Shown: piece by piece, positions 6,209-63,215 of the stretch
How the letters are laid out: the number at the start of each line of letters is the position of its first letter
Position numbering within the stretch: position 1 is the stretch's first letter
NCBI GenBank assembly: GCA_965219695.1
Contig: CBDCOJ010000031.1
Span: forward strand, 414,561 to 478,560
DNA length: 64,000 bases
Origin: Candidatus Poribacteria bacterium
Lineage (GTDB): Bacteria; Poribacteria; WGA-4E; WGA-3G
Direction of reading: 5' to 3'
Program-made: the position numbers and the translations under genes
The notes under the pieces: model-generated
The model's input: the letters and a program-made list of their open reading frames with translations, nothing else
Databases searched by the model: none
Told to the model about the DNA's origin: nothing

Positions 6209-6267
6209 GTAGGAGGGAACTCCGATTCCCGACTACAAACAGGTCGCGATTCGGAGATCGCTCCTAC
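6209..6267. repeat. Palindromic intergenic repeat, family A (GTAGGAGGGAACTCCGATTCCCGAC ... GTCGCGATTCGGAGATCGCTCCTAC)
   Basis: Two roughly 25-nt arms that are imperfect reverse complements. The same element recurs at 8834, 15004, 30163, 49446, 51971, 54640 and 57592. Confidence 0.8.
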
Positions 6268-6336
6268 AAATATGAACATCTGTGAAAAACAACAAAACTG
6301 CTGTGTAACTAACACAAGTCGTCACTTTCAATACTA

Positions 6337-7200
6337 TTAAACCGTTTCTAAAGAAAAAGAGGTCAAACTTCCTTCAGCGTAAGCCTGCAAGCCTTCAGTC
6401 GGTTGTTCGTGAAGATAACCGATAGGTGCACAGATTGCCTTAACGTCTTCGATCTGCTGATTAACAGCATAATGCACATGTCCAAAGAGGACATGTGTAA
6501 CAAGCGGTTCTTGCAAACACAACCTACCAAGACCTTCGCTTCCGTAAAAGGCAGGAAAATAGTCCCATGGCAATTCACCACGGTAGCGAATACACTCCCG
6601 AAACGGCACATGATGTGTAACAACAACAATGCGTTGGACCTTGCCCTTCAGGAAAGCTATCTGCTTATCAAGATCAACCTCAAAACGATGTGCAATGTTT
6701 TCGTCTGTATCTGTCCATCTGGCATATCGTTTATCACTCCAGACTGTTCCCATCAACTGTTTTTCTGCATACTGTTCAGCGGAAAAACTGTATTTGTCCG
6801 AAGCAAATGTGTAATCGTACCAACCTATGGTACCGCAGAATCCTATTTTTTCTCTGATATATGGCGCATCAACGAGTGAGTGAAACCCGTGATCTTGGCA
6901 AATTCCTGAAATTACACGACACTTCTGCTCACTTGTCATGTTCGCATCCTTGCTAACCCAAATATCATGATTACCTGGAACAAATATTTTCTGACAAGTC
7001 AAGTTTGCTTTGTCAAATTCACCGAGGACTTCGTAGAATTCTGATAATTTCGGGGTTATATCACCCGCAAGGACAAAAACATCAAGTTCTGCCGCTTTGA
7101 TCGCATCAATGAGAAATGGAACAATTGTTTTGTTGGCTTCAGTTGCTTCCGCATGCAGATCGGAAATTAGTCCAATTTTCATTGATCTTGTGTCCGCCAA
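6337..7200 (-). CDS. Metallophosphoesterase (calcineurin-like)
   Basis: 'GLISDLHAE', 'VLAGDIT', 'GNHDIW', 'VVVTHH' and 'GHVHY' are the canonical metallophosphatase motif series. The likely start is the internal MKIGLISD. Confidence 0.75.
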   Translation of the reverse strand: MADTRSMKIGLISDLHAEATEANKTIVPFLIDAIKAAELDVFVLAGDITPKLSEFYEVLGEFDKANLTCQKIFVPGNHDIWVSKDANMTSEQKCRVISGICQDHGFHSLVDAPYIREKIGFCGTIGWYDYTFASDKYSFSAEQYAEKQLMGTVWSDKRYARWTDTDENIAHRFEVDLDKQIAFLKGKVQRIVVVTHHVPFRECIRYRGELPWDYFPAFYGSEGLGRLCLQEPLVTHVLFGHVHYAVNQQIEDVKAICAPIGYLHEQPTEGLQAYAEGSLTSFSLETV

Positions 7201-7287
7201 CTTACTCCGTATTTCAGAAAAAGTCTGTAAATATTGTGCGTTGACATTTCAAACTTGGCGTAGTATTCAAAAATCAGAAAACAGTAA

Positions 7288-8727
7288 TTACTGAGATTGA
7301 GTTGTCAAACTGCTAAAAACCTCATCAAGAAAGATACGGATAGCGGAATCATCTTCTTGAAAACGTTGTCGTTGTCGTTCAAGAGCACTTAGTGCGGATT
7401 CGTCTCCAATTTTAGCAATTGCGTCCACCAAAGTTAATTGTATCGCGGGATCATCGGTGGTTTCTAAAGCATTAATCAGAAAATCACGTGTCTGTATTCC
7501 ACCGATAGTACCGAGGGCTGAAGCAGCGATATCTTTCGCAGCGGTATCAGCTTCATTGAATGCTGCGATGAGCGCATCAACAGCAGGTGTACCGATCTGG
7601 CTAAGTGCTAAACCCGCTTGGAAACGGATGCCGGGAATTTCATTATTATCTCTAAGTACTTTGACAAGAGGTTCAATCGCGGAGATAGGCTTGAGGATGC
7701 CAAGAATGGAAAGACATGTTCGACGAATTTCCTGTTCCGGTTCAGTGGCAATTTGAATATATTGTTCGGCAAGTTTCACAAGAGAACCTTCGTTTACTTT
7801 CTGGTACAGTGCTTCTGAACGGTGACGAAATTGAATTCCGAATGGCGCTTCAAGTGTTGCCGTTTGTGCAGCGGGATCAACGAGGAGTAATCCGAGAATT
7901 TCAGCGGAGTCACTATGTTTACTATCAAGTGTATCTGCGGGAAGTTGATTCACATCTTCCTGTTGAAACTGCTGAAAGAGTGGATTGAGCTCGCTGAGGG
8001 CGACAAGCCGTTCTAAACTTCGTGCTGCCGCTTTGCGGAGTGCGAGTTCATTGCTATTTTTAAGAATTTCTATCAAGGATTCTACAGCGCGGGCATCACC
8101 TAAATTACCGAGGGCGGAAACAGCTGCTATTTTAACACCGATTAATTCTGTTGTCCTGAAGGTCAAGTCAGCATTCAATTTTGCGAACTCATCCACGGAT
8201 TTCTTGTAATCGTTTAAACTGTAAATTTTGCGCTCATCAACAATTTTTTCAACAACATCACCAACTTGAATAACTGCACTATTTGCAGCGGGGGTTCCGG
8301 GTGTAATTTCCTTAATACGAACAGGACCGCTGCCTTCAACCTCTAAACCAACTTTATCCCCAAGTTTTCGGATTGCAATACGAAGTGGATGCTTACCTTT
8401 GAGATACAGAAGCATGTTATTGTCGTCAGCCATAGCTCTTTTGAGCGCACGTTTGAACTCGCGGGGATTTTGGACAGGGTACTCACCTATTACATAAGAA
8501 ATGAGTTCTCCAGATGAAAGTTCTGCTTTATCAGCGGGACCGTTAGATGTGATAGCACTTATGACAACACCACTCGTTGACCAGCGATTTTCAAGATCAC
8601 TGTCAAGCTGTTGCACTTCCATTTGCAAGCGTTCATCGTAGTAGGAGTTGTCACATCCCAGCGTAAATGCTAAGGTGATAAAAATTAAGATTATTGATAT
8701 TTTTCTAAACATCCACGTTCCTTTCAA
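7288..8727 (-). CDS. Putative lipoprotein with a PDZ domain and HEAT/PBS-lyase-type repeats
   Basis: Signal with Cys ('ITLAFTLGC'). A PDZ-like segment ('IKEITPGTPAANSAVIQVGDVVEKI'). Multiple HEAT-like repeats ('AVSALGNLGDARAVESLIEIL', 'ALSQIGTPAVDALIAAF', 'DAIAKIGDESALSAL'). Confidence 0.55.
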   Translation of the reverse strand: MKGTWMFRKISIILIFITLAFTLGCDNSYYDERLQMEVQQLDSDLENRWSTSGVVISAITSNGPADKAELSSGELISYVIGEYPVQNPREFKRALKRAMADDNNMLLYLKGKHPLRIAIRKLGDKVGLEVEGSGPVRIKEITPGTPAANSAVIQVGDVVEKIVDERKIYSLNDYKKSVDEFAKLNADLTFRTTELIGVKIAAVSALGNLGDARAVESLIEILKNSNELALRKAAARSLERLVALSELNPLFQQFQQEDVNQLPADTLDSKHSDSAEILGLLLVDPAAQTATLEAPFGIQFRHRSEALYQKVNEGSLVKLAEQYIQIATEPEQEIRRTCLSILGILKPISAIEPLVKVLRDNNEIPGIRFQAGLALSQIGTPAVDALIAAFNEADTAAKDIAASALGTIGGIQTRDFLINALETTDDPAIQLTLVDAIAKIGDESALSALERQRQRFQEDDSAIRIFLDEVFSSLTTQSQ

Positions 8728-62071: not shown

Positions 62072-62158
62072 CATAAAGGTCAAAATGGTTAGTATCAAAA
62101 CAATAGTTTTATTTTTCAGATCTGAGGTCCACCACACCGTTCTCTGAAAGTAGAGCGA

Positions 62159-63073
62159 ATGGAGAATATGTCAGACGCAACAGAGACATCCCACTTAAAC
62201 ATAAATAATACATCTAATCTTCAACCAATGGGTGTTGGTGACATTCTCGATACGACTTTTAGTTTGTATAGGAAGCACTTCTTGCTGTTTTTGGGAATTG
62301 CAAGCATATACTTCTTCGCAATTCTAATTGAATATTCGTTGAAAGGGTTTATATCAGGCACTATCCAAAAAGCACTGATACCAACCCTCACTGCGATGCC
62401 ATTCGCAATAGTAAGCATAGGCGGGGTAATCTTGGCAAGTGCCACTGTTTACTTAGGTGAAAACATTACAAGCAGTGCCGCACTTAAACAAGTGTTAAAA
62501 AGGTTTATCCCAGTGTTAGGCAGTCATCTAATATGGAGACTGTTTTTTGTTCTTACATTTCTGAGTATAGGTTTTTCAATTATCCTAACGATACGTCAAG
62601 GGGCATCCGGTATACTTTTAGGATTAATTGGTTTTCCAATAGCATTCTATTTTCTTATATGTTGGGTGTTTCACTTACCAATTGTGCTACTTGAAGTGCC
62701 ACGTGTCGTATACGCACTCAAACGGAGTACAGAACTGGTTCGTAGTACGTGGTGGCAAGTCGTTGGAATTCTAATTCTGATCCTTCTGACGAGTTACGCA
62801 ATTGCAGTCATATTTAAGGTATCACTTGGATTCATGTTCGTTTTCGCAAAATTCGCTGGCAATACCGATTTAAGAAGTGTTATAGAATGGGCAATAATGG
62901 AAAATCTCCTTGATACCAGTAACTTCTATTTTTACACAATTATGATATGCGCTGATCTAATTCTTACTACTCTTGTTTTTCCGATATGGACAATTGGACT
63001 CACGCTTCTATATTTTGATCGCCGGACACGTAAAGAGAGCTCTGATGTTGAACTCACTGCAGACAATACCTAA
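62159..63073 (+). CDS. Polytopic membrane protein (hypothetical)
   Basis: 304 aa with 6 to 7 hydrophobic helices. Confidence 0.4.
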   Translation: MENMSDATETSHLNINNTSNLQPMGVGDILDTTFSLYRKHFLLFLGIASIYFFAILIEYSLKGFISGTIQKALIPTLTAMPFAIVSIGGVILASATVYLGENITSSAALKQVLKRFIPVLGSHLIWRLFFVLTFLSIGFSIILTIRQGASGILLGLIGFPIAFYFLICWVFHLPIVLLEVPRVVYALKRSTELVRSTWWQVVGILILILLTSYAIAVIFKVSLGFMFVFAKFAGNTDLRSVIEWAIMENLLDTSNFYFYTIMICADLILTTLVFPIWTIGLTLLYFDRRTRKESSDVELTADNT

Positions 63074-63159
63074 TCATTTAGATTCACTCCCAAACAAAAG
63101 GATTGAAACGTGAGGTTTTGCTGAAAGTCAACTTGTAAGTTGGATAGAACTGGTAAACC

Positions 63160-63215
63160 CAAATCAACGGTATGAATGCCAAAAAGGTATTCATACCGTT
63201 GATTTCTTCCTAACT
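63160..63215. repeat. Family B palindromic repeat (AATCAACGGTATGAATGCCAAAAAGGTATTCATACCGTTGATT)
   Basis: A near-perfect long palindrome. Confidence 0.75.

Follow-up and report, generated by a model that had tools for sequence, protein, structure and literature searches.

Short palindromic sequences recur in the gene spacers of a 64,000-nucleotide (nt) stretch of Candidatus Poribacteria DNA (contig CBDCOJ010000031.1; hereafter the window), which raises the question of what kind of element they are and how they came to be there. A first-pass annotation, made from the letters of the window, had sorted them into two families, A and B, and likened them both to repetitive extragenic palindromes (REPs) and to miniature inverted-repeat transposable elements (MITEs). 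We conclude that the repeats are probably REP-type elements of Candidatus Poribacteria, which in the lineage of the window, of low guanine-plus-cytosine (GC) content, build REPINs (inverted REP doublets) and alternating clusters resembling bacterial interspersed mosaic elements (BIMEs), and which would be moved by a REP-associated tyrosine transposase (RAYT). The REP/BIME/REPIN type is an ordinary kind of element. What is new here is the phylum, for which such repeats appear to be undescribed: a literature search found no published description of them in Poribacteria, and thus no REP or BIME family of a named organism to which they would belong. To our knowledge, REP and REPIN systems have been studied almost wholly in Proteobacteria and less in Cyanobacteria. 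It is the conservation over many Poribacteria MAGs (metagenome-assembled genomes), combined with an architecture of hairpins nested in the loops of other hairpins, that lends these repeats their interest.

Structure and arrangement of family A

Family A is a 25-nt arm, GTAGGAGSGAWCTCCGAWTCSCGAC, which has 13 matches in the window at up to three mismatches (6209/6243, 8834, 15004/15031, 30163/30206, 49447, 51972/52015, 54659 and 57592/57630), compared to none in 100 shuffles. Each of the eight places given for this family in the first-pass annotation holds a match. By our reading of the sequence, three further arms are split by family B DNA (8861-8869+8941-8956, 49487-49491+49531-49548 and 54481-54496+54636-54644), and two remnants can be recognized, one being half of an arm (26132-26147) and the other an arm that has degenerated (13503-13527). 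The core of family B, AATCAACGGTATGAATG, matches nine times in the window (0.31 expected), at or near each of the seven places noted earlier. The GGACAGAAGATGGTCTGT insert seen earlier in some family A copies is real as well, and is the 18-nt spacer of the doublets at 30163, 49447 and 51972, whose GTAG ends point inward.

Across 256 arms, the family A unit reads CT, GTAG, GA, a 5-bp stem, a CTCCGA loop, the returning strand of the stem and GAC, with head, loop and tail nearly invariant. The four positions of the GTAG tag are conserved in 250 (G), 248 (T), 242 (A) and 242 (G) of the 256 arms, each above the 90% looked for in a REP, and the tag is preceded by C at position -2 in 57% of arms and by T at position -1 in 70%. 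When the stem positions were allowed to vary, the 5-bp stem proved to be fully paired in 232 of 271 arms. The 25-nt unit has the size (20-40 bp) and the stem-loop of a REP. The stem itself comes in several types (GCGAT/ATCGC in 105 arms, GGGAA/TTCCC in 90, GGGAT/ATCCC in 26, plus few others), each of which keeps its pairing. Overall, 88.5% of stem cells are paired, two-sided changes number 51 compared to 23.8 in shuffles, and the covariation score of 0.314 (0.117 shuffled) was reached by none of 500 shuffles, with slid controls scoring far lower. Three compensated stem variants would be hard to obtain otherwise, and they therefore argue for constraint on the hairpin.

The arms are arranged in a distinctive way. 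Among inverted neighbours, 52 pairs combine the two main stem types and one pair is same-type, while direct arrays of family A each hold one stem type. In what follows, the GGGAA/TTCCC arm is called Y and the GCGAT/ATCGC arm Z. Spacers have modes at 14 nt when the GTAG ends point outward and at 16-18 nt when they point inward, and the doublets form long hairpins of -17.5 to -18.7 kcal/mol (z -5.6 to -7.2) in which four mismatches are placed symmetrically. Larger clusters occur in Poribacteria loci that we compared with the window (labelled here by L-numbers): 13 alternating arms in L070 (2930-3490), ten direct Z arms in L043 and five direct Y arms in L003. Family A thus has the layout of a BIME, that is two alternating subtypes, characteristic spacers and repeated clusters. 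REPINs have been defined as inverted REP doublets with a singlet-to-doublet ratio below 2 and a link to a RAYT (Bertels and Rainey, PMC3116915). The low-GC lineages, including that of the window, fall below this ratio, with 37 singlets, 51 doublets and 8 clusters, whereas the high-GC lineages exceed it (64 singlets vs 14 doublets).

The description of the repeats as REP-like is therefore well founded: the tag, the stem-loop, the pairing into inverted doublets, the clusters of alternating arms and the location outside genes (see below) are all features of the REP/BIME/REPIN class. Two superfamilies of REPs, GTAG and CGTC, have been distinguished (Di Nocera et al. 2013, PMC3733652). In GTAG-1 and GTAG-2 units, two unpaired nucleotides follow the tag and a 3-nt motif closes the opposite end; heterodimers are described for several REP families, and so are REP-specific RAYT genes (PMC3733652). 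The same layout of tag, unpaired dinucleotide, short stem-loop and 3-nt tail is found in family A. Xanthomonas REPs (GTAGGAGCGCACCyGGGCGCGAC) and Pseudomonas REPs (e.g., GTAGGAGCGAGCyyGCTCGCGA) each lie beside a RAYT gene (Nunvar et al. 2010, 2013, PMC2817692, PMC3686654). Family A has a head, GTAGGAGCG, and a tail, CGCGAC, identical to those of the Xanthomonas axonopodis REP, and it shares with the Pseudomonas/Xanthomonas type the complementary stem variants, the outward and inward dimers, the preference for heterodimers and the extragenic location. Additionally, its CT|GTAG consensus agrees with the properties of E. coli TnpA-REP, which requires a 5' GTAG and cuts at CT (Messing et al., PMC3479197). 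Unlike the Pseudomonas/Xanthomonas-type REPs, family A resides in another phylum, has a constant 6-nt loop (CTCCGA) and a 5-bp stem, is kept over many MAGs of a candidate phylum rather than in one species or genus, and comes without a flanked RAYT in our searches and, as far as crude gene calls can tell, without enrichment between convergent genes. A Pseudomonas/Xanthomonas-like head and tail in an uncultivated phylum of sponge symbionts extends the GTAG superfamily. The two alternating subtypes, characteristic spacers and repeated clusters (such as the 13 arms of L070) also recall the BIMEs of E. coli, from which family A differs in its unrelated sequence and its shorter units. With REPIN-RAYT systems it shares the inverted doublets forming a long imperfect hairpin, the excess of doublets over singlets in the lineage of the window, and tandem REPIN clusters.

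Distribution, turnover and nesting

The first-pass annotation had allowed that the copies might be confined to the window or its contig as a local duplication. An exact scan for the 25-mer through one representative genome per species (185,579 species) located it at a minimum of 111 loci, which belong to about 55 MAGs and have a local GC content of 37-56%; among those listed, 109 are labelled Candidatus Poribacteria and two come from one unlabelled MAG. Family A is thus neither local to the window nor specific to one species. A cyanobacterial (Nostoc) repeat, guessed from the 41% GC content and the GCGATC-like cores, is ruled out by the Poribacteria label of 109 of the at least 111 loci. BLAST of the doublet against 72,556 plasmids gave no meaningful match, and only 2 of 2.9 million contigs in a viral collection match family A. 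REPs are expected in more than 100 copies per genome; for family A the genome-wide copy number is an extrapolation from the 13 arms in 64 kb of the window and the at least 111 loci in about 55 MAGs. Judged among the at least 111 matches listed, the 25-mer is a likely marker of Poribacteria contigs in sponge metagenomes, and its conservation over 37-56% GC offers a test case for REPINs and RAYTs as ancient, vertically inherited residents.

Family A largely avoids genes. Open reading frames (ORFs) make up about 81% of the sampled DNA, yet they contain only nine of its 152 family A sites, the other 143 being extragenic, with a median distance of 81 nt to the 3' end of the nearest upstream gene. 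In the window, the earlier statement that the repeats are always intergenic holds: all copies lie between long ORFs, in 13 spacers, and no long ORF is hit. By crude greedy ORF calls, the genes flanking A sites point the same way in 69% of cases, converge in 9% and diverge in 22% (background 73/13/14%). A flanking direct repeat of at least 3 nt, as a target-site duplication would leave, was found at 0 of 70 A doublets.

Comparison of related genomes revealed presence/absence differences, with repeats in some orthologous spacers and none in others. The spacer between the MoxR and DUF58 genes measures 323 nt with families A and C in the window, about 100 nt in L124 (84% identical), where the sole repeat is a GTAGGAG-headed hairpin, and about 0 nt in L125, whose genes are about 79% identical. 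A metagenome scan with the DUF58 neighbour found three close relatives, two of them informative, the rest being about 50% identical proteins from other organisms; a look-up of the MoxR protein of the window returned only its own contig (ENA ERZ24894577 ctg521844l, 99.99% identical) and no strain-level variation. Similarly, a spacer of L075 contains an A doublet and the orthologous spacer of L014 contains none, and at a place where L091 has a single A arm, L047, which is 96% identical to it, has three arms and an additional 226 nt. Between the same two HEAT-repeat genes, the window and L071 both have a doublet, in opposite arrangement and with family B in the window copy alone. Within the window, two paralogous spacers (at 49332 and 51857) share 92% identity, with a B unit in the Z arm of the first alone. 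These differences support the earlier suggestion of non-autonomous mobile elements. In the strict sense, a MITE is bounded by terminal inverted repeats, duplicates its target site and depends on a DDE transposase; for family A the MITE-like label fails in this sense, given the 0 of 70 doublets with a duplication and the unrelated ends of the one transposable element found in the window (see below). The repeats account for assembly breaks and for spacer variability in Poribacteria MAGs, and they offer sites for strain typing.

The first-pass annotation had also proposed the repeats as recombination substrates for the tandem gene array of the window. The segments 49212-49494 and 51737-52019, each comprising the 3' end and the repeat-bearing spacer of tandem LamG/TPR paralogues, are 92% identical, vs 64-76% for the remainder. 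The spacer with its REPs may therefore have undergone gene conversion or exchange in the recent past; the pattern fits such an event without proving it, and the repeats may serve as a recombination substrate for the array.

Family A is not alone. Families B, C and D belong to the same kind of repeat, the GTAG head being present in family C, in family D and in some copies of family B. Family B is a modular hairpin consisting of AAATCAACG(G/C), a stem, an N5 loop, the returning stem and CCCG(G). Its stems covary (TATGAATGCC, CTGAATGC, CCAAATGC and CCGAATAC among others), its reverse complement often begins GTAGGCGG, and its units start with AAATCAA and are usually preceded by CC. Family C (GTAGTCGCGCAATTCATTGCGC), overlooked earlier, occurs in the window at 17378-17455, 49589-49626, 52095-52129 and 57529-57560+57690-57738. 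In the loci sampled, families B and C occurred only at up to about 47% GC and family D (GTAGGGTGSGCACTGCSCACC) only at 51% GC or more, which would confine B and C to low-GC and D to high-GC lineages. Family E, which is MITE-like, consists of 19-20-nt terminal inverted repeats, GAGGGTGTGTAAAGTTTTGG and AAAAACTTTACATACCCTC, around the 15004 doublet; its motif GGGTGTGTAAAGTTTT is found in nine other low-GC Poribacteria loci as well (L005, L012, L029, L070, L095, L100, L102, L106 and L124). A separate repeat, GTAGGAGCGAGCTGTGCTCGCGAyC, is present in five direct copies in L014 (5270-5650). It has the head and tail of family A around a different hairpin, and is nearly identical to the Pseudomonas REP class GTAGGAGCGAGCyyGCTCGCGA.

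Beyond mere adjacency, many family B copies lie inside A arms, which had also been overlooked. Family B enters the loop of Y arms at a single fixed junction, GTCGGGAAT^...^CGGAG (8861, 26132 and 54481 in the window; L009 and L039 elsewhere), interrupts the Z arm after GTAGG (49487 and L095), abuts the head of family A (L081 and L097) and lies in the loops of other B units (13109 in the window, L081 and L097). At 57529-57738 an A doublet in turn interrupts a family C element, a family that is uninterrupted at 17378-17455. This nesting may have arisen from repeated targeted insertion or equally from amplification of a few composite copies, and the nested copies are a natural record of insertion places. 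The nesting may be comparable to that of the small dispersed repeats (SDR) of Nostoc, reportedly described by Elhai and co-workers in 2008 as tiny hairpin modules that sit inside other repeats with hairpin potential kept. The Poribacteria modules would differ from them in being GTAG-headed REP-like units of 25-36 nt.

RAYT genes and rival explanations

Within Poribacteria, a RAYT homologue is predicted at L056 5565-6137, where E. coli RayT aligns in a tblastn search with 38% identity (E 6e-35). The protein scores 175.6 bits with the NCBIfam model REP_Tyr_transpos (cut-off 80), matches TnpA-REP of PDB entry 4ER8 (E 9e-34), and has PDHLH and YIHYNPV motifs that align with the RAYT signature, which places it in the HUH/Y1 class. 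Judged by these matches, Poribacteria encode a bona fide RAYT. Its gene order (TPR protein, HD protein, RAYT, a 166-aa protein, O-methyltransferase and ferrochelatase) is conserved in several high-GC Poribacteria; a single-copy RAYT that keeps its place on the chromosome in part of the phylum is one more likeness to REPIN-RAYT systems. These RAYT genes (L056 and L113-L120) are flanked by GTAG-headed family D REPs and not by family A, and family A persists where this RAYT is undetected, in which respects Poribacteria differ from a REPIN-RAYT pair. RAYT genes are usually single copy. L118 has three tandem full-length RAYT genes and a partial fourth (1557-3582 and 3569-4060), with family D REPs between them, and L056 has a duplicated RAYT 3' fragment at 6286-6555.

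The likeliest mechanism, in which we place somewhat more than even confidence, is hairpin-guided cutting and rejoining of single strands by a RAYT-type HUH enzyme without target duplication. In single-stranded DNA, for example in the lagging-strand template, the HUH/Y1 RAYT would bind the hairpin together with its 5' GTAG tag, cut at the CT dinucleotide and rejoin the strands. By copying or by moving, the unit would thus reach further gene spacers, or loops that other repeats expose as single strands, and no target-site duplication would arise. The two stem variants of a doublet would leave four mismatches in the long hairpin, and these probably shield it from palindrome-removal systems. The sequence comparisons show the anatomy, the covariation, the extragenic position, the distribution over many Poribacteria MAGs, the presence/absence differences and a true RAYT in the phylum; from these we infer that a RAYT moves family A, and the repeats may affect the host, for example through RNA stability, protein binding or recombination.

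Several observations weigh against this interpretation. No RAYT flanked by family A, as a cognate RAYT of a REPIN would be, was found in the window or in the roughly 1 Mb of Poribacteria sequence sampled around A sites, and a profile built from 121 RAYTs recovered from all ORFs of that DNA the D-flanked RAYT alone. All members of this sole clade have a mid- to high-GC amino-acid composition, and the low-GC lineage of the window is therefore without a demonstrated RAYT. The sole Y1 enzyme seen in a low-GC genome, one related to that of the window, is an IS200/IS605 TnpA (L040 441-914, minus strand; NCBIfam 73.7 bits, cut-off 55), beside which, at 1017-1500, lie five tandem units of about 100 nt with unrelated hairpins, GCACTCCGCTGGAGTGC and CACGCCTCTGGCGTG, that are absent from the window. 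Retention of an exact 25-mer over 37-56% GC is unusual for REPs and could equally reflect a selected host function. Unlike reported REPs, A sites show no convergent enrichment (9% vs 13%) and are somewhat enriched between divergent genes (22% vs 14%), as far as crude gene calls can tell. Part of the covariation signal may stem from amplification of few master copies. Finally, the hairpin of a lone arm is weak (-3.3 and -3.9 kcal/mol), no better than in shuffles. The missing A-flanked RAYT itself carries little weight, because about 1 Mb spread over about 55 genomes is a small fraction of each.

Other candidates for a cognate enzyme did not hold up. ORFs with A arms on both sides proved to encode merely a TIM-barrel enzyme and a UbiA prenyltransferase, and two RAYT hits of low-GC appearance (P0036 and P0026) were cyanobacterial with no family A nearby. 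Proteins recurring near A sites are ordinary paralogues (GFO/IDH/MocA oxidoreductases, short-chain dehydrogenases, sulfatases, WD40 and HAD proteins), and a tblastn search of plasmids with RayT found no RAYT of the Xanthomonas or P. fluorescens type. A clustered regularly interspaced short palindromic repeat (CRISPR)-like array is ruled out by the 12-16-nt spacers and by the lack of cas genes in Pfam scans of the window (two giant ORFs and ORF 52166-54386 being outside those scans).

The chief rival explanation is that family A is a conserved host element, such as a nucleoid-, gyrase- or IHF-like binding site or a structural signal in DNA or RNA, that is under purifying selection throughout the phylum and is not, or no longer, mobile, its REP likeness reflecting an ancient origin. 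The exact conservation across about 55 MAGs of different GC content, the almost invariant loop, head and tail, the failure to find a cognate RAYT and the predominance of singlets in the high-GC lineages would all be expected of such an element. It is nevertheless unlikely in our assessment, as orthologous spacers, even those whose flanks are 96% identical, vary in whether they contain copies, in how many and in how these are arranged, tandem and alternating amplifications exist, the copies take no consistent position or orientation relative to genes, and arms are tolerated though split by 71-139-nt inserts. A role mainly in transcription termination or in stabilizing mRNA 3' ends, with spread being secondary, is quite unlikely. 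The first-pass annotation had named this role, and REPs elsewhere stabilize mRNA (PMC3479197). A sites follow the nearest upstream 3' end closely, most window copies lie 50-150 nt past a stop codon, the hairpins are stable (about -18 to -30 kcal/mol), and the B palindrome at 63159-63206, located between convergent genes, has TTTCTT directly after it. But for family A the proposal is not supported: a terminator scan flagged no A arm and, among the repeats, only a single B unit (54523-54549) and a single C hairpin, the latter on the opposite strand from the gene, doublets lack a following T-run, both orientations occur, and 22% of sites lie between divergent genes. Terminator-like sites are not in excess over shuffles (13 vs 10.8 and 10 vs 12.1), and beside the family C element there is a separate canonical terminator at 17476-17499.

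That the repeats are MITEs moved by a DDE transposase, or that family B derives from an IS200/IS605 palindrome and is no RAYT substrate, seems improbable to us. The only transposable element found in the window is of the IS701 family (19287-20799; transposase 19381-20646, NCBIfam 175.8 bits, cut-off 170), bounded by 22-nt terminal inverted repeats, TACTATAGTTTGGACAGTTTTA (91% complementary). Its presence would favour such an origin, but its ends are unrelated to A, B and C. The family E repeats around the 14963-15097 doublet and in nine other loci, the TnpA of the related low-GC genome and the regular start of B units after CC also point toward such an origin; on the other side stand the absence of duplications at A doublets, the absence of the TnpA-associated hairpins from the window, and the GTAG tag, typical of RAYT substrates, on A, C and some B copies. 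DNA-uptake signals, comparable to the DNA uptake sequences (DUS) of Neisseria or the uptake signal sequences (USS) of Haemophilus and enriched by biased uptake from the same species, are a highly improbable explanation. Such signals would be phylum-specific, as family A is among the matches listed, highly conserved and over-represented, and the frequent inverted pairs after genes parallel DUS pairs. A structured 25-nt unit with covarying stems, pairs that mix two variants, near exclusion from genes and amplification in tandem clusters do not fit them.

Besides RAYT-driven movement of REP-type elements, which we favour, we also give a small chance to a hierarchy of self-targeting, in which GTAG-headed modules would prefer the loops or heads of others (B into the fixed site of the A loop, B into B, A into C), and in which family A would be maintained throughout the sampled Poribacteria, also in the low-GC lineages where RAYT is undetected, by an unrecognized enzyme or by selection for a host function. 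If true, this would be a new REP variant, namely transposition of single strands into loops or a DNA signal domesticated across the phylum, rather than an ordinary REPIN-RAYT pair.

Repeat sites and neighbouring genes in the window

The gene content of the window, with giant TPR/LamG proteins, HEAT-repeat proteins and a MoxR-DUF58-BatA cluster, fits Poribacteria. No Rfam covariance model reaches its gathering score anywhere in it. The simplest family A site is the GTAG-outward doublet at 6209-6267, in the spacer between a cupin and a metallophosphatase gene, with Y at 6209-6233 (plus strand), a 9-nt spacer and Z at 6243-6267 (minus); the single-stranded DNA of this doublet has a predicted fold of -18.2 kcal/mol (z -7.2), and four mismatches are placed symmetrically in it. 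At 8834-8956 a doublet contains nested family B: Z at 8834-8858 (plus) is followed after 2 nt by the split minus-strand Y arm, in whose loop lies a 71-nt insert (8870-8940) of two B hairpin units. This composite folds at -30.3 kcal/mol (z -6.7), and its segment 8861-8914 is 100% complementary to 54591-54644. The doublet at 14963-15097 sits inside the family E inverted repeats, with Y at 15004-15028 (plus), a 2-nt spacer and Z at 15031-15055 (minus), and folds at -18.7 kcal/mol (z -6.7).

Three sites have the GTAG ends inward. At 30128-30269, Z (30163-30187, minus) and Y (30206-30230, plus) are separated by the 18-nt spacer AGAAGATGGTCTGTATTT, with conserved flanks that are common to 49407-49583. 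The composite at 49407-49626 is the same in reversed orientation, with Y at 49447-49471 (minus), an 18-nt spacer and a plus-strand Z arm that is broken after GTAGG (49487-49491) by a B unit and continues at 49531-49548; a C hairpin follows at 49589-49626. The doublet at 51972-52129 is without B (Y 51972-51996, minus; Z 52015-52039, plus) and ends in a variant C hairpin at 52095-52129. At 54481-54683, a plus-strand Y arm is split by a 139-nt array of four B-type hairpin units, and after a 14-nt spacer Z follows at 54659-54683 (minus). The MoxR-DUF58 spacer (57492-57738) combines a B-like hairpin (57492-57522) with a C element (57529-57560+57690-57738) broken by a 129-nt insert, which bears the A doublet of Y (57592-57616, plus), a 13-nt spacer and Z (57630-57654, minus).

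Four sites are mainly of family B. A composite of stems nested like a Russian doll, starting with GTAGG, occupies 13109-13279 (plus strand) in a 1.1-kb spacer between divergent genes. The same spacer holds the degenerate lone A arm GTAGGTGCAAACTCCGAATCACAAC (13503-13527, minus) and, at 13541-13575, two adjacent short palindromes, TATACCGTACGGTATAC and TATACCGTGGTATAC, that are outside families A-E. The array at 26039-26147 (plus) runs into the right half of a Y arm (CGGAGTTCCCTCCTAC, 26132-26147), with the same junction as at 8941. A lone B hairpin unit lies at 29087-29129 (minus), downstream of a gene ending at 28970, and a perfect 20-bp B palindrome at 63159-63206, between convergent genes, folds at -19.4 kcal/mol (z -10.1).

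The 78-nt uninterrupted family C element at 17378-17455 (minus), with its GTAG-headed hairpin, lies downstream of a Ro60/TROVE (Rsr-like) gene at 15543-17327, which is recognized by the Pfam TROVE and Ro60 vWA models. Upstream of this gene are two matches to the bacterial Y RNA YrlA (15225-15350 and 15479-15558) with tRNA-like pieces, both below threshold (33.2 and 27.9 bits, E 2.4e-5 and 8e-4; gathering score 69). The region 15225-17327 is likely a Ro60-Y RNA module in Poribacteria. Elsewhere in the window, a sodium:solute symporter (SSF) gene is split into two ORFs, 23037-23534 and 23540-24619, covering profile positions 1-84 and 125-404, which suggests a frameshift, an internal stop or a pseudogene.

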